From an uncultured Ignavibacteria bacterium (GTDB lineage: Bacteria; Zixibacteria; MSB-5A5; SM1-73): a stretch of DNA of 64,000 nt. Below the pieces are notes generated by a model, which saw only the letters and a list, made by a program, of their open reading frames with translations, did not search any database and was not told the DNA's origin. Position 1 is the first letter of the stretch. The number at the start of each line of letters is the position of its first letter. The position numbers and the translations under genes are program-made. The stretch is taken from the NCBI GenBank assembly GCA_964348415.1, contig CAYGCR010000004.1:21651-85650 (forward strand), given 5' to 3'. Below are positions 28,013 through 61,279 of this stretch, piece by piece.

Positions 28013-28828
28013 ATGCGTTACGGAAGTCAAAGCATGATCGATCAACTCAAGGTAGTCTTGGTCCGTCGTCCGGACGCTTCATTTGCGCCGGCGCAGCCAA
28101 ACCTATCGATTGCACAGCGGGAACACGATAAGTTTGTCGGTTTGCTCAGAGATGCAGGCGTGAAGGTCCTTTATCATGAAGAGGTTCTGGTTAATTGTTC
28201 AGCTGCTATCTTTGTGCGTGACCCTGCCATGATAATCTCTGATGGCGCGATTATCTTTCAAATGGCAAAAGAACACCGGCGCGGTGAAGAAGATGGAATC
28301 CGCAGATGTCTGGAAAAGCTGGATATTCCAATTCTCCATCAGTTTTCTGGGGACGTATTTATTGATGGCGGGGATTTGGTCTGGATTGATAAACATAATT
28401 TAGCGGTCGGGCAAGGTCCACGTACTGGAAAGGCGGGACTTTATCTGTTAGAAGAAGTTCTGTCTCGCCACGGAATTCGTGTGCTCCCGGTTCCCTTTAC
28501 GAACGCGCTACACCTAGGGTCGGTTTTTTGTATTGTCCATCAGAACATTGCGGTTGTCATGCCACAATATCTTCCCAAGTCGTTCTCCATATTTCTTGAA
28601 GAACGAGGATTTCATCTCATTACTCTGCCGCAGGAGGAGGATGATTCGCTTGGAATCAGCATATTGACATTATCGCCGGGCAAGTGTATTATGCTAGAAG
28701 GTAATCCTATCACGATGCAACGACTGAAATCGGCTGGTTGCGAAGTTATGACTTATCAAGGAGATGAAATATCTCTTAAAGGAGGAGGAGGGGCACTTTG
28801 CTTGACGCAGCCTCTCCTGCGTGAGTAA
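28013..28828 (+). CDS. Amidinotransferase-superfamily enzyme (dimethylarginine dimethylaminohydrolase or arginine-deiminase-like).
   Basis: The C-terminal motif GGGGALCLTQPL (a Cys nucleophile following Gly residues) is typical of DDAH/ADI-like enzymes. Confidence 0.65.
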   Translation: MRYGSQSMIDQLKVVLVRRPDASFAPAQPNLSIAQREHDKFVGLLRDAGVKVLYHEEVLVNCSAAIFVRDPAMIISDGAIIFQMAKEHRRGEEDGIRRCLEKLDIPILHQFSGDVFIDGGDLVWIDKHNLAVGQGPRTGKAGLYLLEEVLSRHGIRVLPVPFTNALHLGSVFCIVHQNIAVVMPQYLPKSFSIFLEERGFHLITLPQEEDDSLGISILTLSPGKCIMLEGNPITMQRLKSAGCEVMTYQGDEISLKGGGGALCLTQPLLRE

Positions 28829-31659: not shown

Positions 31660-32465
31660 CTAATTGCCCACCCACGTGATTTTCTGCCCAGCATCGTATC
31701 TGAGACGAAAACGGGGAACCGCTACCGTCTGGAGACCGTATAGACGTAAGGTAAACGGTACAACAAAATAGATCAGGAAAGGCGGTATGCAATGAGAGTG
31801 GGAAGTTTCTCCGAACAAGATGTGCTCAGCTTGGCTAAGAGAGCGTACAATGAAGGAGACGCAGGGTTTGAGATCAAATCGGATAAATGCGCCTTGTTAG
31901 TCATTGACATGCAGGATGAATTTGTGAAACCTCATTGGTCTCCTGACTGGGTGCCCGAAGCCACAAAACGAGTACCCCGGATTAAGATGCTGATTGAACA
32001 CTGCAGGAGTAAGAATATCCCGGTAATCTACACGGTATACTCAAACACACATAATTTCCTGGACCGTCCGAAGACCGGGAAATTCATGCCAGGACGATAT
32101 TCGGAGCTGGACATTGACTTCTCCATATTCTTTGTGAATGGACGAGTCTGGCACGAACTTGCTCCTCGAGAGGATGAGATAGTGATCAAGAAGTCGTCCT
32201 ACGGAGCGTTCTATGATACACCCTTAGAGACAATTCTGAAGAACATGGGAAAGGACACGGTGATTATATGTGGGACGATAACCAACTGTTGTTGTGGTAC
32301 AACAGCACGACAGGCGTATGAAAGGAGCTTTAAAGTAGTCTTCGGAAGCGATGTAACGGCGCCTGATGATCCGGAAACGCAAGAGTCAGAGCTGAAGGTC
32401 CTAAGGAAAGGTTTTGCGAGGGTCTTGAGCGCGGAAGAAATAATCAGGGCTTTAAGCTAAATTGT
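31660..32465. repeat. Segmental duplication of about 0.8 kb. It comprises isochorismatase gene copy 2 plus about 130 bp of upstream leader, and is a duplicate of 26880-27690.
   Basis: DNA identity is about 85-90% in the leader (..ctggagaccgtatagac..taaggtaaa.ggtacaaca..gatcaggaaagg..) and in the CDS. Confidence 0.7.
31792..32460 (+). CDS. Isochorismatase-family cysteine hydrolase (copy 2).
   Basis: It is about 90% identical at the amino-acid level to 27008..27676. Confidence 0.8.
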   Translation: MRVGSFSEQDVLSLAKRAYNEGDAGFEIKSDKCALLVIDMQDEFVKPHWSPDWVPEATKRVPRIKMLIEHCRSKNIPVIYTVYSNTHNFLDRPKTGKFMPGRYSELDIDFSIFFVNGRVWHELAPREDEIVIKKSSYGAFYDTPLETILKNMGKDTVIICGTITNCCCGTTARQAYERSFKVVFGSDVTAPDDPETQESELKVLRKGFARVLSAEEIIRALS

Positions 32466-35940: not shown

Positions 35941-35959
35941 TGAGTTGGGCGGGAGAAAA

Positions 35960-36835
35960 ATGAAGATCGAATATCGTAGCGGGTACTTTAACGATCCTGA
36001 TGCGAAAGCATCGTTCGAGCGCTACGCAAAGAAAATCTTCGGACTCGATTTCAGTCGATGGAAAGCCCGGGGACTTTGGGATGATCAGTACAAGCCCTTT
36101 TCCGCTTTCATCGGCGGAGAATGTGTCGCCTCCATTTGTGTCTATCCTTCGGACATGAGAGTCGATGGTTTGAAGAAGAAAGGTGGCCAACTTCTGACGG
36201 TAGGAACTCTGCCCGAGGATCGATCGCAAGGCATACAAAGAGAGATTTGGAAAAGAGTCTGGGCTTGGATACAGCAGGAGTGCGATTTCGCTTTTCTATT
36301 CACCGACGAATCGGCGGCAGACTTTTACGAAAAGCTGGGTTTAACAAGACAACCAGAGCATTTCGATGTGGTGAGCTGCCCGCAGCTAACAAGCCAAGAT
36401 GAGTTGCGATTCAAGAGGCTAAATTTAGAGCTTGACCGCGAATATGCGATTGTTGAGCGTTTGGCGAGAGAAAGAGAGATGGTCTCCGATCGGCTTGGTT
36501 TCTTCAATCCCAACCTGCTTTTGTTCATGTTTCTCTATGTTTACCAGAGCTGGTCCTATTATCTTGCGGATATCGATACTGTAGTTGTCGTCGAGGAGAC
36601 AGAAGACCGATTGCGGATTCACGACATCGTGGCCAAGAAGATGCCGAAGCTATCCGATATCGAGATCTTCCTTGCACAGTTCAGGAAGGAGGAAATCGAA
36701 TTCCTGTTTTGCACGGATCGTCTGGGACTAATTCAACCTACGAAGAAGAAGAGGGTGGAAGAAGATGTGTTGTTTGTCAGCGAGGATTTCGAGTTAGACG
36801 GCCGGTTCGTTTTTCCTTACTCGATTCGTGCATAG
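35960..36835 (+). CDS. GNAT-like acetyltransferase domain protein with a C-terminal extension.
   Basis: The N-terminal approximately 150 aa have a GNAT-like pattern. An RBS (GGGAGAAAA) lies before the ATG at 35960. Confidence 0.4.
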   Translation: MKIEYRSGYFNDPDAKASFERYAKKIFGLDFSRWKARGLWDDQYKPFSAFIGGECVASICVYPSDMRVDGLKKKGGQLLTVGTLPEDRSQGIQREIWKRVWAWIQQECDFAFLFTDESAADFYEKLGLTRQPEHFDVVSCPQLTSQDELRFKRLNLELDREYAIVERLAREREMVSDRLGFFNPNLLLFMFLYVYQSWSYYLADIDTVVVVEETEDRLRIHDIVAKKMPKLSDIEIFLAQFRKEEIEFLFCTDRLGLIQPTKKKRVEEDVLFVSEDFELDGRFVFPYSIRA

Positions 36836-38380: not shown

Positions 38381-40864
38381 CTATTTCAGCAGCAACATCT
38401 TCTTTACCTCGACGTGATCGCCGGCTGCCACGCGGTAGAAATAAACGCCCGTAGCCAGTTCATGGCCGTTATCGCCCCTGCCGTCCCATTGGATTGCGTA
38501 AGGGCCAGCTAACTGCTCACCGTCGACAAGTGACCGGACCCGCTGACCCAAGAGATTAAAGATCTCAACGGTCACATGGGCGCGTTCAGGCAGGCTATAT
38601 TCAATCAATGTCGAAGAATTGAACGGATTGGGGTAGTTTTGTCGGAGAACGAAATCTTCCGGAAGGACTGAGCCATTGTCATCTTCAACATCGCTACCAC
38701 TGATGATAACAAGCGTTAGGTGCTGGATATCTGCCAGCGGCGGGTTACTGCTGTCCATAACCCGAACCGTGAAATGGGCTGTGTCTAAACCGGTAGGTAG
38801 ACCGGAGATAACGCCTGTTGGGCCATCCAGCGTAATGCCTTCCGGCAAACCTCCAGCCGTAAGATCCCAGAAGTAAGGCGGGGTCCCGCCGACTGCCTGC
38901 AAAGTCTGGTCATAGTACCGTTCCAGGCTGGCGTGGGGAATAGTCAGGGTAGTGATTTCGACCACTGGCTCGGGTTCCTGGATGACCACAACCCGGATGT
39001 CGAAATTGTGGCCTTCGGGATCCAGGTCGTCGAAGAGAATCCACTCGCCGTTGTACATCAAGCTGCTGCGCATAGGCAGACTGTCCACCCTCACACCGGA
39101 GTGCATATCAACACGTTCCCCCGGTTGCAGGTTCACAGCGGTGAATCCTACGTGGAAATCCTCCCCTGGGAAGAACTGCAGTCCCAGTTCGGACACATCC
39201 ACCCAGGTCCAGCGGCCTATGTTGGCGGGATCCAACTGGACATCAATTGAATCTATTTTGTCTGTCGGAAACGTACCATCACTGTTCCAGACGTAGATTC
39301 GACAGGTCGGTGCTCCGCCCCATGGATTAGCTAGCATCAGAACTGCTGATAGCGAACAAGACTCATCAGCGGTGAATCGGGTGTTAAAGAGGTCCATGCC
39401 GTTGTCGTTCGGAAGGCAGACGCTGGAGCCTCCCCACTCGTTATCATATTGAATCATCCGCGAGTTTGATTTTTCCTGTATTCTCAATGTTGGATCGCCC
39501 AATAGGGTTAATCCGTAATAGTAACATTCTTCCCACTCCCAAAAACCGCCCGCCGCCTGGGCTAGAAACCAGTCCATATATGCATCGCCAATCGGCTTTT
39601 GATAGCCCAGGGACGGATAAAAATCATGACAGTATATCATGGCCCCCAAAGTTGTGTTTCCAATAGCCGCCAAGCCATAACTCGGGCTGAAAATATACCA
39701 TCCAGCCATGTAATCGGAAGCAGTATACCTGGCATTGGAGCAGGCACACAGGATGTAGAAATAGACTCTGGGATCGACGGCAGGTATTTCCCAGCTGTAA
39801 GTAAAGCTCCACTGGCCGGCGGGATTGGTAAAGCCGTGGCTTACCGGGTCGGAATGAGCATACAATTGAATTAATTCGTGAGGCTCGGTCAGAGTGTTTT
39901 CGTAGTGGGCATCCCAGGTTGTCCAGGGGTCATTTACGGCCGTGCATCCGCCAATGAATTCAGACTGGAGCATATTCAAATGGTAAGTCAGGAAAATACA
40001 ATCATCATCGAGATAAGCCAGCCCCCGATGCGCCAACGGCGCCAGGCCACTCCGGTATAAGTGATTCTTGCGAAAATAATTCTCGAGCAGTTCAATTTCG
40101 GACAAACCGCCTGCAATCAATGGCGAGGCGGTCAGTCGTCCGATCCAAATCTCAGGAGCCCTATCGCCGGTGTGAAGATCGTACAGGCCGTCAGCGTCCG
40201 TGTCGTGAAACAGACCGTTTAAATCCATATAAAAGAAATCGCAGGGGAATTCGAGGTGAAAAGGAAAGGGCGGATCATAGCAACCGTTCGTCTCATACCA
40301 GGCGATCGGCAGATCGCCGACAAAGATGGCACCTTTCAACCCCTCCGCGTACAGACTCTGCAACAGACCGCGCAGTTCTTCCGGGGTCCCGCACGATACG
40401 GTATAGATGTCAACGCTGAAGCCCTCACCGGCCAGATCAAGCGCGTGAAGTTCCAGACTGGCTTGGAGACGTTCCCACAGGTCAGCATTCACCATGACGG
40501 CTACGCGGGAACTACTCAGAACGGAGCCCAGCGGATATGCGGAGTGCACATGCTCGTATCGAAGCGGCTCCGGGGCATCCCGGCCGGCTTTCCAGTCATC
40601 GTAGGTGGAGCGGTCAGCCCCCTCAAGGTGAATCCCTCGAATCAGATCGTGGTGATTTGGGCTGACAACCGCCCGAGCGCTTGATGCCTCCGAAGAATTG
40701 CCCGCGTTTGAAACCGGAAAAGTGTTCTCTGTGCTCAGGGTGCTTCCAGAGGCGATGCTTAGCCAGAGCAATACCTGGATGACAACCGCCACGATGCGCA
40801 CTCGGGCCCTCTGGTCTGTCCGCGACGCAGGAAACAGCCAAACATGACTCCGTCGTCGATCCAT
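38381..40864 (-). CDS. Large secreted protein with a clan-CD (peptidase C25 / gingipain-like) catalytic region, a putative Ig-like domain and a T9SS-type C-terminal sorting domain.
   Basis: An H-G ... A-C dyad context is present (YAHSDPVSHGF ... YILCACSNARY). There is a He_PIG-like Ig segment (GGTPPYFW). The C-terminal approximately 80 aa read NYPNPFNSSTLIEYSLP...GVYFYRV..., typical of Por/T9SS CTDs. Confidence 0.55.
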   Translation of the reverse strand: MDRRRSHVWLFPASRTDQRARVRIVAVVIQVLLWLSIASGSTLSTENTFPVSNAGNSSEASSARAVVSPNHHDLIRGIHLEGADRSTYDDWKAGRDAPEPLRYEHVHSAYPLGSVLSSSRVAVMVNADLWERLQASLELHALDLAGEGFSVDIYTVSCGTPEELRGLLQSLYAEGLKGAIFVGDLPIAWYETNGCYDPPFPFHLEFPCDFFYMDLNGLFHDTDADGLYDLHTGDRAPEIWIGRLTASPLIAGGLSEIELLENYFRKNHLYRSGLAPLAHRGLAYLDDDCIFLTYHLNMLQSEFIGGCTAVNDPWTTWDAHYENTLTEPHELIQLYAHSDPVSHGFTNPAGQWSFTYSWEIPAVDPRVYFYILCACSNARYTASDYMAGWYIFSPSYGLAAIGNTTLGAMIYCHDFYPSLGYQKPIGDAYMDWFLAQAAGGFWEWEECYYYGLTLLGDPTLRIQEKSNSRMIQYDNEWGGSSVCLPNDNGMDLFNTRFTADESCSLSAVLMLANPWGGAPTCRIYVWNSDGTFPTDKIDSIDVQLDPANIGRWTWVDVSELGLQFFPGEDFHVGFTAVNLQPGERVDMHSGVRVDSLPMRSSLMYNGEWILFDDLDPEGHNFDIRVVVIQEPEPVVEITTLTIPHASLERYYDQTLQAVGGTPPYFWDLTAGGLPEGITLDGPTGVISGLPTGLDTAHFTVRVMDSSNPPLADIQHLTLVIISGSDVEDDNGSVLPEDFVLRQNYPNPFNSSTLIEYSLPERAHVTVEIFNLLGQRVRSLVDGEQLAGPYAIQWDGRGDNGHELATGVYFYRVAAGDHVEVKKMLLLK

Positions 40865-41089
40865 CCGAGATTCCCCATATAAGGGTTTCAGAAACACTGT
40901 CTACCCCTTTCAACGTGTGAACAACGGAGAGGTTTCTTCGAATTGTCAATGATCTGGTCGTTTCACTGAGTGATCGCTTCTATGAAGAGAAAAATCCGGG
41001 CCTTTTGCCGTTCAGTGCCCGTCGGATCCCCCGACCCGATCAGGCAGAACGCGGGACCAGGCCAGGGGACCTTGCAGGCACAGAACAGT

Positions 41090-42507: not shown

Positions 42508-43518
42508 TTATGGTTTCTTTGTCTTCAAGTTCAAGCTCATAGCTATTGAGTCTCGCTTATAGGGAGTGGCCCACGGTTGTGCGATGGATATCTCAACGAA
42601 GCCCAGCGAGCGATAGAGATTACACGCGGCGGTCATTTTAGGGCTGGTGAGCAAAACCAACTGCCTGGCACCAATCTCTCTTGCCCGTTCGACCGCGGCC
42701 AAGGCGAGCTTGCGTCCCACCTGATGACCCTGGGCTTTCCTGGTGACCGCCATCTTGGTCAACTCGAGGGTATGCTTATCATGTTTGACCAACGCCGCGG
42801 TGCCGACGATCTTCCCGTCAACTCGGGCGAAGAGCACGAACCCTCCGGCCTTGATGATTTTTCCATATGGGTCGGACAGCAGTCTGGTGTCCTCGTCCTC
42901 CACAGCGAAGAACTTCTGGAGCCATTCCAGGTTGAGCGACTTGAAATGCCGTTTGAACCGGGGTTTGTAGTCGATGATCTCAACTCTCTCCAGTTCGCGC
43001 GACTTGACTAGACGCATCACCCGCTCATACATCCCGGCCTTATTCAATGCTTCATCAAGCCGTCCGAGCGAGGCCAAGAGATCGCCACCAGCCTCATTCA
43101 AAAGTTCGCTGGCAGCAGTAGCTATATCCTCCCACACCGGTTCTAACGACGATACCGCATTCTTTCCTTTTCTGGTCAGACGTAAAAGATGCTTACGTTC
43201 ATCTTTCTTGTCCTTAATTGATTCAAGCAACCCTTGCCTGGCCATCTCGCCAGCAATCTGATTGATCGCCGGATGGCTGTAGCCCAGAGCTGCTCCTGCT
43301 TCGGTTACAGGTACCGGCCCAGATTCCTTCAGAAGATAGAAGAGAGGGAACCAGCGGGGCTCGAAATCGGCAGACCTTTCGCGGTAAATGCGCGGTCCGT
43401 CCTTATAAAGCCACTCGGCCAACCTCCTGAATCGACTGGCCAGGGCCAACGGTCCAAGCTCTCTTATCAGATCCACGTGTAAATCTCCATGGCTGAATAC
43501 GACCCGTCCCTTCCTCAA
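42508..43518 (-). CDS. MarR-family winged-helix regulator fused to a GNAT N-acetyltransferase.
   Basis: It has a MarR-like wHTH (..LLRLTRKGKNAV..) and a GNAT motif (..HQVGRKLALAAVERAREIGARQLVL..). It lies 20 nt upstream of the S41 peptidase gene, so the two are probably an operon. Confidence 0.75.
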   Translation of the reverse strand: MRKGRVVFSHGDLHVDLIRELGPLALASRFRRLAEWLYKDGPRIYRERSADFEPRWFPLFYLLKESGPVPVTEAGAALGYSHPAINQIAGEMARQGLLESIKDKKDERKHLLRLTRKGKNAVSSLEPVWEDIATAASELLNEAGGDLLASLGRLDEALNKAGMYERVMRLVKSRELERVEIIDYKPRFKRHFKSLNLEWLQKFFAVEDEDTRLLSDPYGKIIKAGGFVLFARVDGKIVGTAALVKHDKHTLELTKMAVTRKAQGHQVGRKLALAAVERAREIGARQLVLLTSPKMTAACNLYRSLGFVEISIAQPWATPYKRDSIAMSLNLKTKKP

Positions 43519-43519
43519 A

Positions 43520-43585
43520 TTTATGTAAGCACTTACGTATTGTCAAGCGATTTGTTTCACAAATCTGACCGTCTGATCAGCATCA
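43520..43585 (-). promoter_or_regulatory. Promoter and operator region of the MarR-GNAT gene. It contains gtaagcacttac (a near-palindrome) and tttgtttcacaaa.
   Basis: It is conserved with the duplicated copy at 4040-4115. Confidence 0.45.
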
Positions 43586-43754
43586 CAGATGCGTCAAATG
43601 GAACACTGTCGTCCTGGACGTTCCCCTGATGAGAATGGCATACTCCACATCAAATGCAGTGAGGCCAAACAGGCCCCTGGCTCGTATTTGCTTGCATTAT
43701 TCGGGGATTTGATGTAAGATAAGCACGGTGCCCGGGATTCGAAAGGAGGAGCGC

Positions 43755-45215
43755 ATGAGGCCGGTGGTGAGATTCCTGAGTGATGAACTCGTTGAGAGGA
43801 TAATCTCGGAGGGCAGGGAGGTTCTGTGCAGACTGGGCGTGGAGATTCACAACCAGAGAATTCTCTCTCTTTTGCAGGAACATGAAGCGAGAGTGGATAT
43901 CGGAAGAAACCACGTCCTTTTTACTGACGAGATAATTGACCAGGCATTGAAAACGGCTCCTTCCTCCTTCGGTCTTTATGACGTTCTGGGCGATGAAACT
44001 CATGATTTCTCAGGATATAACGTCTATTTCACTCCCGGCTCCGCAGCGCTGAATATCCTGGATTATGAGAAAAACCGGATTCGGAAGCCAACGACGCACG
44101 ACTACGTCGAATATGCAAAGCTGATGAGTCGGCTCGATAATATTGCTTCCCAGGCCACGGCGTTCATACCGGCCGACGTCCATGAAAAAATCTCAGACAG
44201 CTATCGACTCTACCTTTCGCTTCTTTTCTGCGAAAAGCCCGTCGTCACCGGTGCCTTCACGGTCGAAGCATTCGATATCATGCGCGACCTCCAGCTTGCC
44301 GTTCGGGGCACAAGAGAGGAACTGGCTGCCAAACCTCTTGCTGTATTCTCCTGCTGTCCGACTTCGCCTCTGAAATGGAGCGATGTCACATCCCAGAATC
44401 TTGTTGACTGTGCTGAATACTCAATTCCGATTGAGTTCGTGTCAATGCCGCTGTCGGGTTTCATGGCGCCGGTGACCTTGGTCGGGACTCTTATTCAGCA
44501 TACTGCGGAGACCTTAAGCGGGGTGGTGATAAGCCAGCTTGTCAATCCCGGCACACCGGTTCTGTACGGCGGCTCACCGGCCATATTCGACGTCCGATAC
44601 GAAACTACCCCAATGGGCGCGGTGGAGACGATGATGATAGACTGCGCATACAACGAGATCGGAAAGTACCTGGGCATGCCTACTCAGGGTTACATATCGC
44701 TCAGCGACGCCAAGCAGCTGGATGCGCAGTCGGGACTGGAATCTTCCATGGGGGCAACCTTGGCTGCCCTTTCGGGCATAAACAACATATCCGGCCCGGG
44801 GATGCTCGATTTCGAAAGCTGCCAGAGCTTGGAAAAGCTTGTTTTGGATAACGAAATCTGTGGAATGACCCTTCGCATGATACGGGGCATCGAGCCTAAA
44901 GAGGATTTTCCGTCGCTTGCCAGATTCGAGGAGCTTCTTAAGGATAAGCACTTGCTGATATCAAATCACACCTTGAGATATTTGAAAGAGGAGTTTTATC
45001 TTCCCGGGCCGGCAATCGACCGAGCAACCAGAACAAGATGGCAGGAGGAAGGCAGCTTAACGCTTTCGGAAAGGGCACACGCTGAAGTGGAAAAACTGGT
45101 TAACGAGTATGTGCCCTCCAGACTGCCGCACAGCGCAAAAAAGGAGTTAACAAAACTGATGGAGGCGGAGGTTCGTCGCTACGGGATGGATAGTCTTCCT
45201 AGGATAAATTCATGA
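43755..45215 (+). CDS. MttB-superfamily methyltransferase (trimethylamine/glycine-betaine:corrinoid methyltransferase family, non-pyrrolysine type).
   Basis: It shows full-length COG5598-like similarity (TIM-barrel MttB family). There is no in-frame TAG. A strong RBS (AAGGAGG) lies before the ATG at 43755. Confidence 0.75.
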   Translation: MRPVVRFLSDELVERIISEGREVLCRLGVEIHNQRILSLLQEHEARVDIGRNHVLFTDEIIDQALKTAPSSFGLYDVLGDETHDFSGYNVYFTPGSAALNILDYEKNRIRKPTTHDYVEYAKLMSRLDNIASQATAFIPADVHEKISDSYRLYLSLLFCEKPVVTGAFTVEAFDIMRDLQLAVRGTREELAAKPLAVFSCCPTSPLKWSDVTSQNLVDCAEYSIPIEFVSMPLSGFMAPVTLVGTLIQHTAETLSGVVISQLVNPGTPVLYGGSPAIFDVRYETTPMGAVETMMIDCAYNEIGKYLGMPTQGYISLSDAKQLDAQSGLESSMGATLAALSGINNISGPGMLDFESCQSLEKLVLDNEICGMTLRMIRGIEPKEDFPSLARFEELLKDKHLLISNHTLRYLKEEFYLPGPAIDRATRTRWQEEGSLTLSERAHAEVEKLVNEYVPSRLPHSAKKELTKLMEAEVRRYGMDSLPRINS

Positions 45216-45955
45216 GAACGATCATCGAGATTCCAGCAGATGAAGTAAAGGCTGAGAGCGAGGATGTCTTGAGGTTACAAAGCATTCCTCCGGAAAAGGA
45301 GCCATCTGAGGAAATGAAGATGCTCTTGCTGAAGACAGTGGATCTATTCCTCAAGTTCTCTCGGCCTAAGGGTATCATCTCGGACATATCGATTCCCGAA
45401 TTTGCGATTGTGTACAACGGTGAGGGGCGCAATGAAAAGACAACGCCTCTGGAAGAAGTCTTCAGTAAGGCAGATAATCTGGCTCTGTTTGCCCTTACGT
45501 TAGGGGAGAGGGTGTCGGAGAAAATAGATGAGTTGTTCAGAACAAGTGAGTTTGCTTTGGCAAGCATGCTAGACTCGGTTGCTTCAGCCGCAGCAGATAT
45601 GGCGGCGGATACGGTCGAAAAGCGTTTTCTTGGCTTACTATGTGACAAAGGAGAAATTGCTCCATCAAAAGCCATGTTGAGATTCAGCCCGGGCTATTGT
45701 GGATGGCACATGAGCGGGCAGAAGAAACTGTTCGAATTTCTGCGTCCAGAAGACATTGGCATCAGATTGCTTGATAGTTTTCTGATGAAGCCTTTGAAAT
45801 CAATTTCTGGTGTGATAGTTGCTGGAGACAAAGATATCTTTGCCTTTGAAGACTCGTATCCGTTCTGCAGCGAATGCAGAACTCGTTCTTGTCGTGACAG
45901 GATTAATGCGCTGTTTGAAGAATCGAGACGAAACAACAAGAAAGGTGTAACGTAA
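45212..45955 (+). CDS. Protein with a MetH-like AdoMet-binding reactivation domain.
   Basis: The RFSPGYCGWHM motif resembles the RxxPGYPA region of the methionine-synthase activation domain. It overlaps the upstream stop codon (ATGA coupling). Confidence 0.55.
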   Translation: MRTIIEIPADEVKAESEDVLRLQSIPPEKEPSEEMKMLLLKTVDLFLKFSRPKGIISDISIPEFAIVYNGEGRNEKTTPLEEVFSKADNLALFALTLGERVSEKIDELFRTSEFALASMLDSVASAAADMAADTVEKRFLGLLCDKGEIAPSKAMLRFSPGYCGWHMSGQKKLFEFLRPEDIGIRLLDSFLMKPLKSISGVIVAGDKDIFAFEDSYPFCSECRTRSCRDRINALFEESRRNNKKGVT

Positions 45956-46593
45956 TGGACATTCTGGAAGAGATTTCACAGTTTCTACAGCAGGGTCATG
46001 ATGAAAAGATATCTGAGCTTACCAGGCAGGCGATAGAAGAAAAAATACCCCCAAAGGAGATACTGGACAAGGGGCTTATCGGTGGCATGAATATAATCGG
46101 CGAAAAGTACAAGGCGCACGAAATCTTTCTTCCGCAGGTTCTGCTTGCTGCAAAGGCGATGTACACGGGGATGGACCTGCTGAAGCCTATGTTCGTCGAA
46201 GAGGGGATGCCGACGATGGGAAAGGTCATCATGGGATCAGTGCAGGGTGATCTGCACGATATAGGGAAGAATCTCGTAGCCATAATGTTGAAGGGCGCTG
46301 GCTTTGAGGTCATTGACCTGGGAAATGACGTTCCACCCGAGAGATTCGTGCAGACCGCGAAAGATGAGAGCGCCGCTATCATAGGTATGTCCGCTCTTCT
46401 TACCACCACCATGCCGGTGATGAAGAGGACGGTGGATATTCTCAAGGAGCAAGGTTTGGATGGAAAGATAAGGACCATAATCGGTGGTGCGCCCGTTTCT
46501 GAGGAATTTGCCCGGGAGATCGGCGCGGACGCCTACGGTTATGATAGTGCAAAGGCAGTGGACATCGTAAAGGAACTTGTCAAGAAGGTTTAA
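45955..46593 (+). CDS. Corrinoid (cobalamin-binding) protein of the MtxC/MetH B12-domain type.
   Basis: The DxHxxG motif (GDLHDIGKNLV) and a B12-binding Rossmann segment (GMSALLTTTM) are present. Confidence 0.85.
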   Translation: MDILEEISQFLQQGHDEKISELTRQAIEEKIPPKEILDKGLIGGMNIIGEKYKAHEIFLPQVLLAAKAMYTGMDLLKPMFVEEGMPTMGKVIMGSVQGDLHDIGKNLVAIMLKGAGFEVIDLGNDVPPERFVQTAKDESAAIIGMSALLTTTMPVMKRTVDILKEQGLDGKIRTIIGGAPVSEEFAREIGADAYGYDSAKAVDIVKELVKKV

Positions 46594-46594
46594 C

Positions 46595-47482
46595 ATGAAA
46601 GCACTGCTTGAGAGGCTAAAAGACGGTGAGATCCTTGTCGCCGATGGTGCCATAGGGACCCTGCTCTGGGATTACGACCTCAAGCCCGGTGAGCCGCCGG
46701 AGTCTTTCAACCTCACCCGCGCTGAAGTTCTTGAGGAAATTGGCCGTGAGTATGTGGATGCCGGTGCGGACATGATTCAGACTAACACGTTCGGAGCATC
46801 GCCAACTAGACTTTCGCTCTTCGGGCTGGACCGTGAGATCGACGAAATAAACCGTAACGCGGTCCTGGCCGCGCGAAAAGCAGCTGGCGATCGCACCTGC
46901 GTCGCCGCCTCTTGTGGGCCGAGCGGGAGGCTCTTGGAGCCATATGGAGATGCTGATCCCGAACAGATCCGCGTGGGTTTTGTAAAGCAGATAAAGGTTC
47001 TGGTTGAAGCTGGCGTTGACGCCATATCCGTGGAGACCATGACCGATCTGGTCGAAGCCACGCTCGCCGTCAAAGCTGCAAAAGAGGTTTCGCCGTCAAC
47101 CCCTGTTCTGGCGGAGATGACTTTTGACAGGACCCCTAAAGGTTTCTATACCGTTATGGGAGCAAGCGTCGAAGATGCCGCAGGAGCGCTTGAAGAGGCG
47201 GGAGCGGACGTCATAGGTTCGAACTGCGGGAACGGTATTGAAAATATGATAAAGATTGCCGTAGAATTCAAAAGGCACACCGAGCTCCCAATCATAATCC
47301 AATCCAATGCGGGTCTTCCGGAGATGCAGGGTGATAAACCTGTATATCCTGAGACGCCTGAGTTCATGGCAGAGAAAGCGAAACAACTGGTCTGGACAGG
47401 CGTATCAATCATTGGAGGCTGCTGCGGAACAACGCCGGAGCATATCAGAGCTATCAGGAGGATGGTTGACCTGCAGAGATGA
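46595..47482 (+). CDS. Homocysteine-binding S-methyltransferase domain protein (MetH N-terminal module / BHMT-like).
   Basis: It matches Pfam S-methyl_trans, with a zinc-ligand Cys triad context (..ASCGPSG.., ..IGGCCGTTPEHI..). Confidence 0.75.
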   Translation: MKALLERLKDGEILVADGAIGTLLWDYDLKPGEPPESFNLTRAEVLEEIGREYVDAGADMIQTNTFGASPTRLSLFGLDREIDEINRNAVLAARKAAGDRTCVAASCGPSGRLLEPYGDADPEQIRVGFVKQIKVLVEAGVDAISVETMTDLVEATLAVKAAKEVSPSTPVLAEMTFDRTPKGFYTVMGASVEDAAGALEEAGADVIGSNCGNGIENMIKIAVEFKRHTELPIIIQSNAGLPEMQGDKPVYPETPEFMAEKAKQLVWTGVSIIGGCCGTTPEHIRAIRRMVDLQR

Positions 47483-47664
47483 TTTTCTCCGCATAAGAAT
47501 TCCATTTGATTCCCCACGTCTCTGGGTCATGATTGAATTGATCTTCTCTGTGCTGGTAAGATGGTTTGCCATTTCTTCACAATCCTCAGATCACACAATT
47601 GGTGCTTTCGGATTTCAGTGTGTAGGTTCCAGACAAATTCATCGTTTTTACCAAAGGAGGTGAT

Positions 47665-47988
47665 GTGATGTCGTCCGAGATGCCCAAGTGTAAAATCACT
47701 GTGCTCAAAAGGACCGTCAACCAGAATCTGATTGATGAATATCTGGATGACGAAAACAAGAGTGCGAAACCGTGTGAGCATTTCAGAGACGGCCAGGAAT
47801 TCATACTGGATCGTTACTACCGAGCGCCAGAGGGCTTTTGTGACTGGGCTTGGGCAGACATCCGTTATGACATACTGGCTGTTGCATACGGTGGCAATAT
47901 GCCCGGGATGAAGCAGCCCGGTACCATCATTGCCGGCTGTACGGATTGGTTCAGGCCGGTGATCTTTAAGGTGGAGAGGCTGGACTGA
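47665..47988 (+). CDS. Small Cys-containing hypothetical protein linked to the corrinoid methyltransferase cluster.
   Basis: An RBS (GGAGGTG) is present. The protein is 107 aa and contains the cysteine spacings CKITVLK-x15-C, CEHF-x18-CDWAWADI and CTDWF. No family was recognised. Confidence 0.45.
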   Translation: MMSSEMPKCKITVLKRTVNQNLIDEYLDDENKSAKPCEHFRDGQEFILDRYYRAPEGFCDWAWADIRYDILAVAYGGNMPGMKQPGTIIAGCTDWFRPVIFKVERLD

Positions 47989-50988: not shown

Positions 50989-51080
50989 AACCCGATTCAT
51001 CGTATCGATCTCGGTGGAATACGCACTTCTTTGGGATTGCTGGATAAAGGCTGGTGATCGCCGGACAGGAGAATGTTGGA

Positions 51081-51854
51081 ATGCCGAAAGCACATGATAT
51101 TCAACTCAGAATCAAGCATTTCCTTGATTCGAGTGGAATATCATTGACGGGAATAGCTTCCGTGGGTCCACTGCCTGGGGTTCCGGAGCATTTCTCACCG
51201 CCGGCCTTGCTGAAACAGGCAAGGTCTGTCATTTGTTATGCGGTGCCGATCCCCAGGGGAATTGTCTTCGCAGACAGCAAAGATCTGGACCTATACTGGC
51301 GTTTCTCTAACATGGCATACAGATCTCTTGATGCAACCTCCAACCGGCTCTGCCTGATGTTAGAAGAGGGAGGTGCTTCAGCCGTTCCGATCTATGGATG
51401 CTTTCCCTGGAAACTTTTGGACGGTGAGTTCTGGGGACTTTTGCCTTTGGTCTATTGGGCTGAGCAAGCAGGTTTGGGTAAGCTCACAAGAAGCGGTTTA
51501 CTTGCCAACCCCAGAAATGGAACCAGTATTCTATTGGGCGGTGTCGTAACGACATTGGATCTGGAGCCGACCGGGAGGCAGAACGACGAGCCCTGCCCTC
51601 CGGGCTGTTTTGACTGCATCGAGGCTTGTGCTGTCCACGCCATTGGGAGGACCGGGAAGGTAAATCACAACCTGTGCCTACGCTACTCGACTTCCAATCC
51701 CCTTGCCGCACACCTGGCTCGAGACCTTAAGACAAGGGACAGCCTGACATTTGAAAGACTGTTGAATACCGTCGGAGTTGATGATCACGCCAGCTATCTG
51801 TGTTTCAAGTGCTTGAAAGTATGCCCATTGAACAATAGAACCAGCCCTAGCTGA
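51081..51854 (+). CDS. Fe-S cluster protein with ferredoxin-like Cys motifs (QueG-like / uncharacterised).
   Basis: The motifs CPPGCFDCIEAC and CFKCLKVCP are present. The family assignment is uncertain. Confidence 0.35.
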   Translation: MPKAHDIQLRIKHFLDSSGISLTGIASVGPLPGVPEHFSPPALLKQARSVICYAVPIPRGIVFADSKDLDLYWRFSNMAYRSLDATSNRLCLMLEEGGASAVPIYGCFPWKLLDGEFWGLLPLVYWAEQAGLGKLTRSGLLANPRNGTSILLGGVVTTLDLEPTGRQNDEPCPPGCFDCIEACAVHAIGRTGKVNHNLCLRYSTSNPLAAHLARDLKTRDSLTFERLLNTVGVDDHASYLCFKCLKVCPLNNRTSPS

Positions 51855-51872: not shown

Positions 51873-52358
51873 ATGAGAATGGGGAAAGGTGATCTAGAAA
51901 GAATCGAGATGAAATCTATAGGACTCGTGAGCCGAACTTCACCCGATGAAGACGTCAAGGACAAAAGTCTTGTCTCGAGAATTGTGCTCAGGAAGGATCT
52001 CACCAAAGCCCTTGATGGAATTGAAGACTTCTCTCACATCCTTGTTATCTATTGGTTGCACAACGTTAAAGGCGCTGAAAAACCCATCTTGCATCATCCC
52101 AGCCAAAAGAGAGAATCACAGCCTTTGGGGATATTTGCTACGAGGGCTCCAATTCGCCCCAATCCTATCGGGTTGACTTTGGTGGAGCTTGTCTCACGCG
52201 ATGAGAATGTTCTTGTGGTGAGAGGTCTTGACGCAGTTGATGGCACCCCTGTTCTGGATATTAAGCCGTACCCCGACTGGGAGCAAGGGCGCCCCATCAT
52301 CGTGACGGATTTCAAAGTACCCAAATGGCTGACAAGAACTGACGACCAACACTTGTGA
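51873..52358 (+). CDS. trmO: TrmO/TsaA-family tRNA (m6t6A37) methyltransferase-like protein.
   Basis: The family signature ..TRAPIRPNPIGLTLVELV...GLDAVDGTPVLDIKPY is present. The start may be at 51909. Confidence 0.7.
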   Translation: MRMGKGDLERIEMKSIGLVSRTSPDEDVKDKSLVSRIVLRKDLTKALDGIEDFSHILVIYWLHNVKGAEKPILHHPSQKRESQPLGIFATRAPIRPNPIGLTLVELVSRDENVLVVRGLDAVDGTPVLDIKPYPDWEQGRPIIVTDFKVPKWLTRTDDQHL

Positions 52359-52362
52359 AAAA

Positions 52363-52884
52363 ATGATTGAAACCAAACGGGTCATCTTACGCAAGATGAC
52401 CACTGGTGATCTGGACGATCTTTTGCGCATTTTCTCCGATCCCAAGGTCATGGCATCCTTCGGCGGAATTCTGTTCGATCGGGAGAAGATGCGGCATTGG
52501 GTCCAACGCAATCTCGATCACCAGGAGCGATACGGTTACGGCATTTTTTGTGCCATTCTGAAGGAGAACGGTGAGCTCGTGGGTGCATGTGGGTTGCACC
52601 ATGTGGAAGCCGACGGATTGCCGCAGGTCGAGCTGGGATATGATTTTCGCAGCGCATATTGGGGCCGCGGCCTGGCCACCGAGGCAGCAGGAGCTCTGCG
52701 CGATTATGCATTCGGGCAGCTCGGGCTGCAACGAATCATAAGTCTGATCCGGACTCACAATAAGGCATCGATGCGAGTGGCGGAAAAGATCGGAATGGTG
52801 CGAGAGAAAGAGTGGACAAGAGGGGATATCAAGTACTATATTTACTCGCAATCTCGTCAAAAGAGGACGCCCGGAAAAAGCTGA
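52363..52884 (+). CDS. GNAT-family N-acetyltransferase (RimJ/RimL-like).
   Basis: GNAT motifs A/B are present (..YWGRGLATEAAGALRDYAF..). Confidence 0.75.
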   Translation: MIETKRVILRKMTTGDLDDLLRIFSDPKVMASFGGILFDREKMRHWVQRNLDHQERYGYGIFCAILKENGELVGACGLHHVEADGLPQVELGYDFRSAYWGRGLATEAAGALRDYAFGQLGLQRIISLIRTHNKASMRVAEKIGMVREKEWTRGDIKYYIYSQSRQKRTPGKS

Positions 52885-57803: not shown

Positions 57804-58163
57804 AGAATCACCTCCTTTCCGTTATAGAAAAAAGCCACGAAAGTCTCATCAAAATAAGCTTTCGTGGCTGCATAACTTCGAGCTAACAAAAACCTATCTT
57901 AACTTTCCTCTCTGTACTTCGGTATCTATACGCACCATTCTTGTTATTTAAGAAGATTTTCACATAATTATGTCATCGGTTTTGAAACCGTGGACACCTC
58001 TCTTGGGCGTTTTTGCGGGTGTTACCTCGTAGCCGGATGTGCCTTGCACCTAACGCAGGACCGGCCATGTCAAGAGAAAAGGAACCGTCAAGCCTACAAG
58101 TCGTATACAGGAATAGCATGTCTTTATTTTGCGGCATGTACCATATTTCGGGAGTCAGCAGTT

Positions 58164-58934
58164 ATGGTAGAGCTTACACCTACCAAAGCAAACATAGTCA
58201 GACTAGCCAGAGCGTTTAAAGGAAATAAACGGGTTGACCTCTCTATCGATTGTGCGATTGAAGGGCAGATGGGCAAAGCATACGCGGATGATCCGAGAGC
58301 CCCGAAGGCGTTTAAGATACAGGTGGGACCCTTCTTGTATCTGGCAGGGGATGCGAGAAGTCCGGGTGGATATGAGATGATGAGAGAACTCCGGCCTTAT
58401 ACCCTGCTCATGCCGTCGCCTGTTGAATGGATCAATGTGGCAAAAGAGATTCACGGCGAAAGGCTGGTCCCGTTTTTGCGCTATAGTTTCTCGTCAAAGA
58501 ATTTATCGGCTGACCGTCTAAGCGGTTTGCTGGATAGTTCACCATTCAAGGATGCGATAAAGCGCATTGATACGGCCGCTGCCACGGAGGCGCTCGCAGT
58601 GCAGGATGGTGTCTTAGACCTTTCCGCTTTCGATTCGGCGGAAGATTTCCTGGAGCGAGGGATAGGCTTCCGTGTGATGAGCAGCGAGACCATAATGGGG
58701 GTGGCTTATTCCTCGCTGGTTTGCAGCAAAGGCATCGAGGTCAGCATCTTCGTGTTCCCGGAGCATCGAAGAAAAGGAATAGCTACGGCCTTAGCAAGCG
58801 CCTTGTTGAAGTGGGGTCTGGAGCACGGCATGGATCCTCACTGGGATGCAGCCAACCCGGAATCGTGCACCTTAGCCGAGAAGCTGGGGTACGTTCAGAC
58901 AGAAACGTATGACGCTTATTACCTGAGACAATAA
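58164..58934 (+). CDS. GNAT-family acetyltransferase-like protein.
   Basis: The C-terminal GNAT motif ..FVFPEHRRKGIATALASALLKWGLEHG.. is present. The ORF is open from 57990, and the ATG at 58164 has an RBS-like GGGAG. Confidence 0.55.
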   Translation: MVELTPTKANIVRLARAFKGNKRVDLSIDCAIEGQMGKAYADDPRAPKAFKIQVGPFLYLAGDARSPGGYEMMRELRPYTLLMPSPVEWINVAKEIHGERLVPFLRYSFSSKNLSADRLSGLLDSSPFKDAIKRIDTAAATEALAVQDGVLDLSAFDSAEDFLERGIGFRVMSSETIMGVAYSSLVCSKGIEVSIFVFPEHRRKGIATALASALLKWGLEHGMDPHWDAANPESCTLAEKLGYVQTETYDAYYLRQ

Positions 58935-59539: not shown

Positions 59540-61279
59540 ATGAAAGCAATACTGTTGTCGGCTCTTGCCGCTATTTTGCCGCTCGCAGTCTCTATCTTCG
59601 CTGCCGAGATACACGATGCAGCAGAGCAAGGCGATCTTGCCGCAGTGAAGAGGCTGGTGTCAGAGAGTCCTGATCTGCTGGATGCCAGCAATGAGAGAGG
59701 GAGTACGCCGCTGCACAACGCATCATTCGGGGGCCATCTGGAGGTCGTCAAGTTCCTGCTGGAAAAAGGAGCGGACATCGAAGCCGTCAATGGCAGAGGT
59801 TTCACGCCGCTACACTTTGCAGCTTATAGAGGCCACCGGGACGTTGTACAGCTCCTGCTCGACAAGGGCGGGAATATTAACGCAATGAATGAACAGATGG
59901 ACATGACCGCTCTTGATTTCGCTTTCCTCAAGGAAATCCAGGCACGTAAGCTGGATATCGCCCCCTTGCTGATTGAGAAGGGAGCAGAGTTCGAAGTAAA
60001 CAAGAAGAACCAGTTCGGGTACACCACCCTGGATATGACCATAGTGTTCGGGCATACCGAGGGAGCCGAGTACTTGCTGGGATTTGGACCGGATATAAGC
60101 AGTATGAGAGAGAAGGACGGGAAGACTCCCCTGATCAATGCCATACTCCGTGGCCGCCCGGAAATCGCCATGCTGCTGATAAAAAAAGACGCTGATGTCA
60201 ATGCGCCGGATAACGAGGGACAACCTCCGGTCTATTGGGCAGTGAAGAAAGGTCTTCCTGATATCCTTCAGACTCTCCTGGCCAAAGGCGCAAACACAGA
60301 TTTTGTGGATAAAGACAACGGAAGAACCATGCTTCATATAGCTGCTCTGCAAGGTCACCTGGGTGTGATGGAAATACTGTTGGATAGCAAAACGGATGTC
60401 AATACAAAAGACAACGGTGGCAAGACCCCGCTCTTTTATGCGGGCAAGTACGGTCACAAGATGGTTGCTGAGCTTCTGGCCAAACACGGCGCCAAGAAAA
60501 CCGGAGACGTGGTGGAAAACTATGGTAAGTCGCCTCATCTGACACGCAACTTCAAGGACCGCGAGGCGGTTGTCTGGTATCTGGCTCACCGGGGTTGGGC
60601 GGTCAAGACAGCGAACCATGTGCTCATATTCGATGCCGAGGAATTCGGAGTGACGCGGCCGACCGAACCATCGCTTGCCAACGGCTTCCTAACGACCCAT
60701 GAACTGGCTGATCAGGACATCTTTGCCATCTACACGTGCTATCACGGGGAACCGGGCGAACCTGCGTATGTCCACACAATAGAGGACTCAATTGCCAGCA
60801 TCACCTACGTTCACAATGAGGGTGATCGCTGGAGAGGATCAGAGGGGACCGTCTACATGAAGCCGAGAGAGGAGAAGAAGCTTGACGATATGAGGATTGT
60901 CTCGGCATTGACACCGGGAAACATGCCAATGATGGCATATCTATGCGATCTGGATGGATTGACCATCTTCTATTCGGGCTTCCGGCCGCGGGACATCGAG
61001 AAATACAAAGAGGAGATCGATTTCCTTACCCAATACACCACCAAAGTAGATCTTGCCTTCCTCCCCATAGCCGAAGCCGACGCGGAGGATAGTGCATCAA
61101 TATATCTCTGCGAGAAACTCCACCCCAGGTACGTTTTTCCGCTGGATCCCGATCGCCGCGAACATCTTTACCCTGATGTGGCCAAAATGACTGCGGAGAA
61201 AGGCTTCAAGACCGAAGTCTTGTGCGCCGAAAATCCAGGCGATCACTTCATCATCATGCCGGGCTCCAAAACAAGGTAA
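59540..61279 (+). CDS. Secreted ankyrin-repeat protein with a C-terminal MBL-fold-like (Lactamase_B_3-type) domain.
   Basis: It has a signal peptide and at least seven ANK repeats (..GSTPLHNASFGGHLEVVKFLLEKGADI.., ..GFTPLHFAAYRGHRDVV..). The C-terminal approximately 250 aa form a globular domain. Confidence 0.7.
   Translation: MKAILLSALAAILPLAVSIFAAEIHDAAEQGDLAAVKRLVSESPDLLDASNERGSTPLHNASFGGHLEVVKFLLEKGADIEAVNGRGFTPLHFAAYRGHRDVVQLLLDKGGNINAMNEQMDMTALDFAFLKEIQARKLDIAPLLIEKGAEFEVNKKNQFGYTTLDMTIVFGHTEGAEYLLGFGPDISSMREKDGKTPLINAILRGRPEIAMLLIKKDADVNAPDNEGQPPVYWAVKKGLPDILQTLLAKGANTDFVDKDNGRTMLHIAALQGHLGVMEILLDSKTDVNTKDNGGKTPLFYAGKYGHKMVAELLAKHGAKKTGDVVENYGKSPHLTRNFKDREAVVWYLAHRGWAVKTANHVLIFDAEEFGVTRPTEPSLANGFLTTHELADQDIFAIYTCYHGEPGEPAYVHTIEDSIASITYVHNEGDRWRGSEGTVYMKPREEKKLDDMRIVSALTPGNMPMMAYLCDLDGLTIFYSGFRPRDIEKYKEEIDFLTQYTTKVDLAFLPIAEADAEDSASIYLCEKLHPRYVFPLDPDRREHLYPDVAKMTAEKGFKTEVLCAENPGDHFIIMPGSKTR

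Follow-up and report, generated by a model that had tools for sequence, protein, structure and literature searches.

The DNA analyzed here is a 64,000-nucleotide stretch (the window) from an uncultured bacterium of the GTDB phylum Zixibacteria (contig CAYGCR010000004.1). At 43755-47482 on its forward strand it carries a cassette of four translationally coupled genes that code for a homologue of the methyltransferase MttB, a MetH-type activation protein, a corrinoid protein and a homocysteine methyltransferase. To judge from its domains and conservation, the locus is a real and well-conserved variant of the theme represented by corrinoid-dependent three-component methyltransferases and split MetH enzymes, with a predicted function. 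We think it somewhat probable that the four genes specify a modular, self-contained methionine synthase that depends on cobalamin and lacks a folate (pterin-binding) module. The domain identities, motifs and operon conservation are shown by the data, and the direction of methyl flow, homocysteine as the acceptor and the class of the donor are inferred. A previous sequence-only reading of this DNA had proposed that an MttB-type donor module is coupled through a corrinoid protein to a homocysteine acceptor, with no pterin-binding methyltransferase involved; the domain, tblastn and co-conservation evidence presented below upholds this coupling as a predicted function.

In the mechanism that we envisage, the MttB-superfamily protein (MT1) would bind a small methylated donor, from which the MttC/MtgC-like corrinoid protein, in its Co(I) form, would receive the methyl group. 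The methyl-Co(III) carrier would then dock on the Zn-type homocysteine methyltransferase (MT2), where homocysteine would be converted to methionine and Co(I) regenerated. Carrier that has been accidentally oxidized to Co(II) would be restored by the activation protein, which resembles TM0269 of Thermotoga maritima, through reductive methylation with S-adenosylmethionine (AdoMet); the electrons would come from an external flavodoxin or ferredoxin, possibly by way of a three-cysteine site in the activation protein. The reverse flow, in which an amine would be methylated from methionine or AdoMet, was rejected on chemical grounds: thioethers donate methyl groups poorly, and it is Co(I) that is the strong nucleophile.

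Conservation and layout of the cassette

A genome scan with the MttB protein, using one genome per GTDB species, recovered 378 relatives, and the loci of the best 80 of these, which are drawn from more than 10 phyla and show 71-84% identity, were analyzed. The phyla represented are Zixibacteria, Cloacimonadota, WOR-3/Stahlbacteria, Phycisphaerae and other Planctomycetota, Gemmatimonadota, Fermentibacteria/Aegiribacteria, KSB1, Krumholzibacteria, Acidobacteriota, Bacteroidota, Fischerbacteria and Candidatus (Ca.) Electryonea. Fifty-five loci are informative, i.e., they extend at least 3.2 kb downstream of the MttB gene, and 48 of them contain all four cassette genes. Because the same four genes recur in so many informative loci from other genomes, their arrangement is far beyond chance, and the co-conservation on which the proposed coupling depends is borne out across these phyla. 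The gene order is MttB, activation protein, corrinoid protein and homocysteine methyltransferase in 45 of the 48 full cassettes, and in the other 3, which are of a Bacteroidota type, the activation gene precedes the MttB gene; nearly all of the shortened loci (23 of 25) hold every cassette gene that still fits. The flanks of the cassette are wholly different between lineages. Its hosts belong to uncultured phyla and are probably anaerobes, since metagenomes of sediment, cold seeps, groundwater and digesters are their main sources.

Within the window, the four genes are as tightly packed as had been described, and their positions stand as originally placed (Table 1). The stop of the MttB gene and the start of the activation gene share an ATGA overlap (45212-45215), the activation and corrinoid genes share a TAATG overlap (45953-45957), and a 1-nt spacer (46594) separates the corrinoid gene from that of the homocysteine methyltransferase. 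The ATG of the MttB homologue begins 5 nt past a GGAGG motif, and a MarR-GNAT gene on the opposite strand (42508-43518, -) is divergent from the cassette. For the homocysteine methyltransferase, we take the ATG at 46595 as the start, and the resulting product is 100% identical to the NCBI protein GTO24_19625 from a Zixibacteria metagenome-assembled genome (MAG). A TTG at 46577 was also considered as the start and was rejected, as it gave no match in the look-up, whereas the ATG corresponds to the deposited protein.

Table 1. Coordinates of the cassette genes and of the adjoining features in the window
Feature	Position	Strand	Remarks
Upstream intergenic region with ribosome-binding site	43519-43754	+	GGAGG at 43745-43749
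MttB homologue (MT1)	43755-45215	+	486 aa; Pfam MTTB PF06253, E = 6.8e-75 over 8-478
MetH-type activation-domain protein	45212-45955	+	247 aa; Pfam Met_synt_B12 PF02965
Corrinoid (B12) carrier protein	45955-46593	+	212 aa; Pfam B12-binding_2 and B12-binding
Zn-type homocysteine S-methyltransferase (MT2)	46595-47482	+	295 aa; Pfam S-methyl_trans PF02574
TIGR04076 small Cys-containing protein	47665-47988	+	107 aa; 80.7 bits versus cut-off of 33

In several other loci, spacers between the cassette genes are enlarged by repeat-like sequence (L006, 2373-2752; L008, 2220-2764; L011, 9830-10161; L020, 9755-10023; L024, 9093-9554). The repeats translate to recurring strings of the type PLP.GER...VRG in L006, L008, L011 and L020 and to FSIF(N/H)F(P/Q) in L024. 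A search of these enlarged gaps for additional genes revealed no conserved open reading frame (ORF) and only repeat-like sequence; the repeats look like REP or miniature-element insertions between the genes of the operon.

Predicted acceptor, carrier and reactivation proteins and the missing folate module

The identities assigned to the four genes in the sequence-only reading hold throughout, as all of the domain matches are significant and full length. The putative acceptor enzyme matches the Pfam S-methyl_trans domain with an E value of 3e-66. Among solved structures, the homocysteine domain of T. maritima MetH (1q7m; E = 1.7e-53, 185 bits) is the one nearest to it. It retains the Zn-ligand motifs GSNCG and GGCCGT (NC...GGCCGT, with three cysteines), which are invariant in 51 homologues. 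With the homocysteine domain of MetH as its best match, it is of the Zn/homocysteine type and not a misassigned pterin-binding protein. Two other identities were considered for it and rejected on comparison with the 185 bits of the MetH domain, namely, a BHMT-like direct betaine enzyme (62-68 bits; E = 7.7e-18) and an MmuM-like enzyme (43 bits; E = 3.3e-10). The matches to PRK07534 (212 bits versus a cut-off of 338) and PRK09485 (97 bits versus 215) likewise lie below their cut-offs. In a related reading, the protein would be an MmuM/YagD-like homocysteine methyltransferase that uses S-methylmethionine or AdoMet independently of any corrinoid and is simply coregulated with its neighbors. As a stand-alone, single-domain protein of approximately 300 aa, it does resemble MmuM, but the MetH, MmuM and PRK09485 scores given above, together with a gene start 1 nt after the corrinoid gene in a position that is kept in 48 of the 55 loci, make this reading most improbable.

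The corrinoid protein combines a cap domain (B12-binding_2; E = 3.4e-21) with a Rossmann domain (B12-binding; E = 1.9e-28) and carries the sequence GDLHDIG, an instance of the DxHxxG motif that is conserved among its homologues. Its best NCBIfam match is MtgC (209 bits, as against 144 bits for MetH), and among solved relatives the scores fall from 199 bits for Moorella 1y80 through 154 for MttC and 130 for MtmC to 110 for the B12 domain of MetH. These affinities indicate a carrier of the MttC/MtgC type rather than of the MetH type. The description of the cassette partners as a split MetH set accordingly stands for the activation and homocysteine proteins and has to be given up for the corrinoid protein.

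The activation protein matches PF02965 with 42.5 bits (gathering score, 25). A profile built from 11 homologues retrieves T. maritima TM0269 (1j6r) with an E value of 1.8e-10 over nearly its full length, and the same profile matches the activation domain of Escherichia coli MetH (1msk) only weakly (E = 0.013). The motifs SPGYCGW and LMxPxKSxSG and three cysteines are invariant in the homologues. We classify the protein as a stand-alone reactivation protein of the MetH/TM0269 type with predicted AdoMet binding. TM0269 itself is described as reactivating TM0268, a MetH that lacks the activation domain (Huang et al. 2007, as cited in PMC7857596). Outside the region that aligns with TM0269 and MetH, the cassette protein has an extra C-terminal motif, C219-x2-C222-x4-C227 (window 45866-45892), which is kept in all 11 aligned proteins and in at least 90% of 61 homologues and, as a Zn or Fe-S site, may serve for the input of electrons. 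Characterized MttB systems, in comparison, depend on ATP-dependent reductive activation of the RamA type (PMC12478193). No RamA or DUF1638 reactivation genes were found at the locus, and none recur near the cassettes elsewhere. That reactivation is of the MetH type rather than the RamA type suggests a low-flux biosynthetic role, with which it would be in keeping.

The module that is expected between a methyl donor and methionine in folate-dependent systems was not detected. A tblastn search with the pterin domain of E. coli MetH (E <= 0.01) yielded no match in either the window or 95 loci (1.12 Mb), in which the homocysteine and B12 domains of the same protein, used as a positive comparison, matched 65 and 80 loci, respectively. 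The pterin-binding domain PF00809 is absent from the operon and from the Pfam-scanned ORFs approximately 20 kb to either side, and no pterin-binding family occurs among 132 immediate neighbors of the cassettes. Nor did clustering of the flanking ORFs, combined with Pfam counts, reveal a recurrent fifth gene, whether a transporter, a pterin module, RamA or methylenetetrahydrofolate reductase: the next most common flanking cluster, whose single scanned member is a C25 peptidase that carries a secretion tail, is present in 10 of 82 loci, and no Pfam family is found more than four times among the 132 neighbors.

These absences bear on a reading modeled on the Ruegeria system, for which genetic work (Mausz et al. 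2025) has shown glycine betaine demethylation and methionine synthesis to be interlinked through MtgB, MtgC, MtgD and MtgE (PMC12478193). The premise of the sequence-only reading that known MttB systems hand the methyl group to tetrahydrofolate (THF) is out of date in the light of this work, which links MtgB and MtgC to the homocysteine-binding MtgE. The MtgBCDE system of Ruegeria pomeroyi, with the split MetH of Phaeobacter inhibens (PMC12478193, PMC5764234), resembles the cassette in having an MttB-family MT1, separate corrinoid and homocysteine subunits, a shared B12 carrier and a connection between demethylation of a methylated amine and methionine synthesis. It requires the pterin-binding MtgD, passes the methyl group through THF, is reactivated by RamA and DUF1638, uses glycine betaine as the donor and is encoded in aerobic Proteobacteria by mostly dispersed genes, with mtgE usually unlinked. 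The cassette, in contrast, is a tight operon of uncultured phyla with no nearby pterin module, a MetH-type activation protein and no betaine ligands in its MT1. If its corrinoid protein nonetheless worked as such a shared hub for two pathways, an MtgD- or MtgA-like pterin-binding enzyme encoded elsewhere would link it to methyl-THF, the MttB protein would chiefly channel methyl groups from a catabolic demethylation into the folate pool, methionine would be made via methyl-THF, and direct flow would be incidental. Consistent with such a hub, MtgC and MtgD are needed in Ruegeria for both methionine synthesis and glycine betaine use, with mtgE usually unlinked (PMC12478193), and the MttB homologue stands apart from its partners in some genomes. 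Nevertheless, the linked partner here is the homocysteine module and not a pterin module, there is no pterin-binding gene within approximately 7 kb in the window, in any of the 95 loci or among the 132 immediate neighbors, reactivation is of the MetH/TM0269 type and not of the RamA/DUF1638 type, and no genes for C1 oxidation or downstream demethylation are linked. On balance, we consider the shared hub unlikely.

The MttB homologue and its predicted donor

The MttB homologue matches two solved relatives over nearly its full length, MtgB (9yce; E = 4.3e-57) and MttB (7xcl; E = 1.3e-49). It is approximately 30% identical both to Desulfitobacterium hafniense MtgB (29.5%) and to Methanosarcina barkeri MttB, which are 30% identical to each other. 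A DxHxxG corrinoid gene accompanies the MttB gene here (45955-46593) and in other genomes. The ORF is uninterrupted, with no internal stop and no in-frame TAG. Leu316 aligns with the pyrrolysine (Pyl) at position 334 of MttB and is a leucine in 78 of 79 members of the clade; Ser346 and Ser96-Ala97 occupy the positions of MttB Tyr364 and Gly110-Thr111. We regard the protein as a non-pyrrolysine member of the MttB superfamily that belongs to a distinct clade and has a predicted role in methyl transfer. Two specific identities were rejected: that of a Pyl-type MttB, given the leucine at the Pyl334 position and a score of 351 bits against the 525-bit cut-off of TIGR02369 (Pyl-type trimethylamine [TMA] methyltransferase), and that of a glycine betaine MtgB, given the absence of the ligands and the 29.5% identity.

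The Rfam model PYLIS_3 (RF02510, "pyrrolysine insertion sequence mttB") matches inside the MttB homologue at window 44702-44799 (+), and its match begins at the Leu316 codon, which corresponds to Pyl334. With 31.4 bits, the window's match stays below the gathering score of 38; four other loci, in which the matches begin at the equivalent codon, score 38.5-48.5 bits (L025, 7948-8045; L030, 7946-8045; L044, 7943-8042; L023, 7946-8045). These matches probably reflect conserved coding sequence and not RNA structure, and in mttB homologues without Pyl they could mislead the annotation of Pyl genes.

Genes of this kind are named as TMA methyltransferases in databases and have been taken as evidence of methylamine use. 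At face value, the window's gene would then serve methylamine catabolism or supply methyl groups to corrinoid proteins such as HgcA, and its methionine synthase-like neighbors would be unrelated to it. Besides the database name, the alignment of TIGR02369 over the full protein favors this reading, and one paper has interpreted the Zixibacteria gene as a TMA methyltransferase that passes methyl groups to HgcA (PMC12484752). However, the score remains below the cut-off, Pyl334 is replaced by leucine and both Tyr364 and Gly110 by serine, neither pyl genes nor an in-frame TAG are present, and the gene is almost universally linked to homocysteine, corrinoid and activation genes, with no RamA or catabolic acceptor. 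We judge a TMA methyltransferase to be very unlikely; like the MmuM-like alternative above, it conflicts with the features tested, and the transfer from TMA to HgcA is not supported by the residues examined. The clade assignment proposed here would correct this common error of annotation, of which the inferred methyl source for mercury methylation in Zixibacteria is an example (PMC12484752).

The residues predicted to line the substrate pocket speak to the nature of the donor. In MtgB, mutagenesis and a ligand-bound crystal structure show that glycine betaine is held by Tyr97, Arg312, His348 and Phe356, and the arginine is also kept in MtcB, MtpB, MthB and MtyB, the enzymes for carnitine, proline betaine, gamma-butyrobetaine and phosphocholine (PMC13080624). 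The equivalent positions in the MttB homologue are Ser96, Gln311, Ser346 and Glu354, which in the alignment of homologues are conserved in 79, 79, 77 and 79 of 79 sequences, respectively, and the complete predicted pocket signature is S96, Q311, Y313, S346, D352, E354 and C356. Because Arg312 and the other betaine ligands have been replaced, a donor with an anionic group, such as a carboxylated betaine, is probably to be discounted. The betaine-type donors (glycine betaine, proline betaine and carnitine) named in the sequence-only reading thus lose their footing, since all four MtgB ligands are replaced, including the conserved arginine; gamma-butyrobetaine and phosphocholine are likewise not expected to serve. 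Instead, we would expect a donor that is cationic and lacks anionic groups, either an N-methyl compound or another onium compound.

A search of 1.84 billion cluster representatives retrieved 5387 MttB-family representatives at an E value of <= 0.001, which form a continuum from 67% to 30% identity, and the pocket signature, in the form S96, [Q/H]311, Y313, S346, [D/E]352, E354 and C356, reaches many representatives at 35-55% identity. The contexts of sister proteins at 47-55% identity (L086/L087, L088, L089 and L091-L093) vary. At 49% identity (L086/L087), the sister MttB lies in a rearranged cluster in which the homocysteine methyltransferase and activation genes precede it, and since the homocysteine linkage survives this rearrangement, it appears to be older than the gene order seen in the window. 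At 47% (L091-L093), a corrinoid gene, the MttB gene, a nitroreductase gene and a gene for a URO-D (MtaA/MtbA-type) methyltransferase follow each other in an archaeal-looking context. One sister gene at 48% identity follows a corrinoid gene, and the remaining sisters are alone or beside an NhaC-type transporter gene. Given these varying contexts, an MT1 of the window's type can, by analogy with the MT1 enzymes of methylotrophic pathways, plausibly serve differing acceptors.

The same residues admit a different reading of the donor side, in which the MttB clade would bind, in place of an environmental methylamine, a universal endogenous C1 carrier such as methyl-THF or a related pterin and stand in for the pterin module of MetH, so that the cassette would be an ordinary split, chimeric methionine synthase with a housekeeping function. 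Several features are in line with this: the MttB protein is unusually conserved across phyla (71-84% identity); the cassette lies amid unrelated or housekeeping genes without a transporter; cation-pi and arginine ligands have given way to the hydrogen-bonding set Ser/Gln/Ser/Glu; and MttB shares with the folate-binding module a TIM-barrel fold from which a methyl group is offered to a corrinoid (PMC9842639). Further, MttB is the sole corrinoid methyltransferase in some Zixibacteria MAGs of a deep-sea study (PMC12484752), although the absence of MetH from MAGs is weak evidence. On the other hand, no member of the MttB superfamily is known to use a pterin as its substrate, the Ca. Electryoneota MAGs would be redundantly equipped in carrying both the cassette and a full-length, folate-dependent MetH, and URO-D-type methyltransferases, which are typical of methylotrophic pathways, are the partners of sister clades that share the signature. 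We regard such a replacement as quite unlikely.

Several observations also weigh against the reading that we prefer, that of a modular methionine synthase without a folate module. In approximately 13% of the informative loci, the MttB gene is separated from some or all of its partners, and the MttB genes without partners adjoin unrelated genes coding for a ferric reductase, a metallo-beta-lactamase, a kinase, a glycosyl hydrolase or an ABC transporter. Neither flank clustering nor the survey of the 132 neighbors identified a linked transporter or a gene for handling a demethylated product; in the window, no folate, betaine or transport genes are present among the Pfam-scanned ORFs within approximately 20 kb on either side. 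Regulatory signals offer no help either: no SAM or cobalamin riboswitch or other Rfam family was detected upstream of the cassette at the gathering threshold or at E <= 5, no SAM or B12 riboswitch was found in nine diverse cassette loci, and in a scan for promoters and terminators the upstream matches were no more common than in shuffled sequence. The pairing of signature-sharing sister clades with a URO-D-type methyltransferase weakens the inference of the donor from the pocket. Finally, in Ca. Electryoneota MAGs the cassette is accompanied by a full-length MetH (PMC9324843) and is hence not always the sole methionine synthase.

If the proposed mechanism holds, many uncultured bacteria would make methionine, and hence AdoMet, in a B12-dependent manner from a donor other than methyl-THF, and the supply of methionine and AdoMet in these lineages would be tied to the donor pool, whether environmental or cellular, and to cobamide availability. 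The clade would extend the MttB superfamily by a new substrate specificity, in a system of four small soluble proteins. A more far-reaching proposition, which we hold to be unlikely, is that many uncultured and, it appears, largely anaerobic phyla depend mainly or solely on the cassette for methionine synthesis and that its MttB clade uses a donor novel to the superfamily, either a methyl-THF-like C1 carrier or a compound that is neither a betaine nor activated by Pyl. Were this true, the folate module of MetH would have been exchanged in evolution for a module of the MttB fold, and "mttB" matches in these phyla would be no markers of methylamine catabolism.

Precedents and genomic surroundings

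The idea of such a cassette is not new, having been published as a hypothesis in 2022, with a related system shown genetically in 2025. Williams et al. (2022, Environ Microbiol) described exactly this four-part cluster in Ca. Electryoneota MAGs, stated that it occurs in diverse bacteria and proposed corrinoid-dependent methionine synthesis with the donor unspecified, in one paragraph of MAG annotation without experiments (PMC9324843). Their cluster, comprising a non-Pyl MttB/MtgB homologue, a homocysteine S-methyltransferase, a corrinoid protein and an activation protein, gave rise to the same hypothesis and does not differ in kind from ours; Ca. Electryonea clarkiae is among our loci (L083), with an MttB protein 72% identical to that of the window. 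Added here are the quantified co-conservation, the lack of a fifth partner or pterin module, the replaced betaine residues, the TM0269-type activation protein with its three-cysteine motif and the contexts of the sister clades. In our literature searches, the names of three components appeared together in full text only in the paper of Williams et al., and no paper characterizing this MttB clade was found.

Among better-known systems, MtgB-MtgC-MtgA of D. hafniense and MtpB, MtcB, MtyB and MthB of Eubacterium limosum similarly pair a non-Pyl, MttB-type MT1 with a cognate DxHxxG corrinoid protein. They differ in that the acceptor is THF, reached through a pterin-binding MT2, and in that the MT1 keeps Arg312; MtgB also keeps Tyr97, His348 and Phe356, whereas the window's protein, approximately 30% identical to it, has Gln at the arginine position and Ser, Ser and Glu at the others. 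The T. maritima pair TM0268 and TM0269 supplies the closest solved relatives of the acceptor and activation proteins and shares the use of a separate reactivating polypeptide. In TM0268, however, the homocysteine, pterin and B12 modules are fused and methyl-THF is used, whereas in the cassette the modules are separate, an MttB homologue replaces the pterin module, and the activation protein has its extra cysteine-containing tail. The folate-independent "core" methionine synthases known as MesA and MesB likewise methylate homocysteine from a corrinoid protein and not directly from methyl-THF (PMC7857596). The MesA-D enzymes have MetE-like (PF01717-type) domains and receive the methyl group from CoFeSP or MtrA, in contrast to the MetH-like PF02574 acceptor of the cassette with its dedicated MttB-type loader.

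Downstream of the cassette, a 182-nt gap precedes the TIGR04076 gene, which is followed by a gene for a TPR protein. The sequence-only reading had regarded this small cysteine-containing protein as linked to the cassette, a view that does not survive comparison with other genomes. Apart from the window copy, homologues are present in only approximately five Zixibacteria-like loci (L001/L020, L010, L011 and L012), in each case immediately upstream of the TPR gene. In two of these (L010 and L011), a GT87 gene is inserted between the cassette and the TIGR04076 gene; in L013, a GNAT gene takes the place of the latter. No solved relative of the protein was found. It is probably a neighbor local to Zixibacteria and not a component of the cassette.

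Farther downstream, 3.5 kb from the cassette, lies a gene for a 266-aa Fe-S protein (51054-51854, +) that is weakly similar to QueG (43.7 bits) and to reductive dehalogenases, both of which are B12-dependent families. It is followed by a TrmO-like gene (51873-52358) and is not among the families that recur near the cassette. Genes for GNAT acetyltransferases are unusually dense in the window, with copies at 35945-36835, 52363-52884 and 57990-58934 in addition to the divergent MarR-GNAT gene. The 91% identity of two 222-aa ORFs of the isochorismatase family (27008-27676 and 31792-32460, +) at a distance of 4.8 kb suggests that a local duplication took place recently; between the two ORFs are a DDAH/arginine deiminase-like gene (28013-28828), a PD40 propeller gene and an APH-type kinase gene. 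Unrelated to the cassette are an 838-aa protein with a type IX secretion system (T9SS) C-terminal sorting domain (38381-40897, -), which fits an organism of the FCB group, and a 579-aa ankyrin-repeat protein (59540-61279, +).

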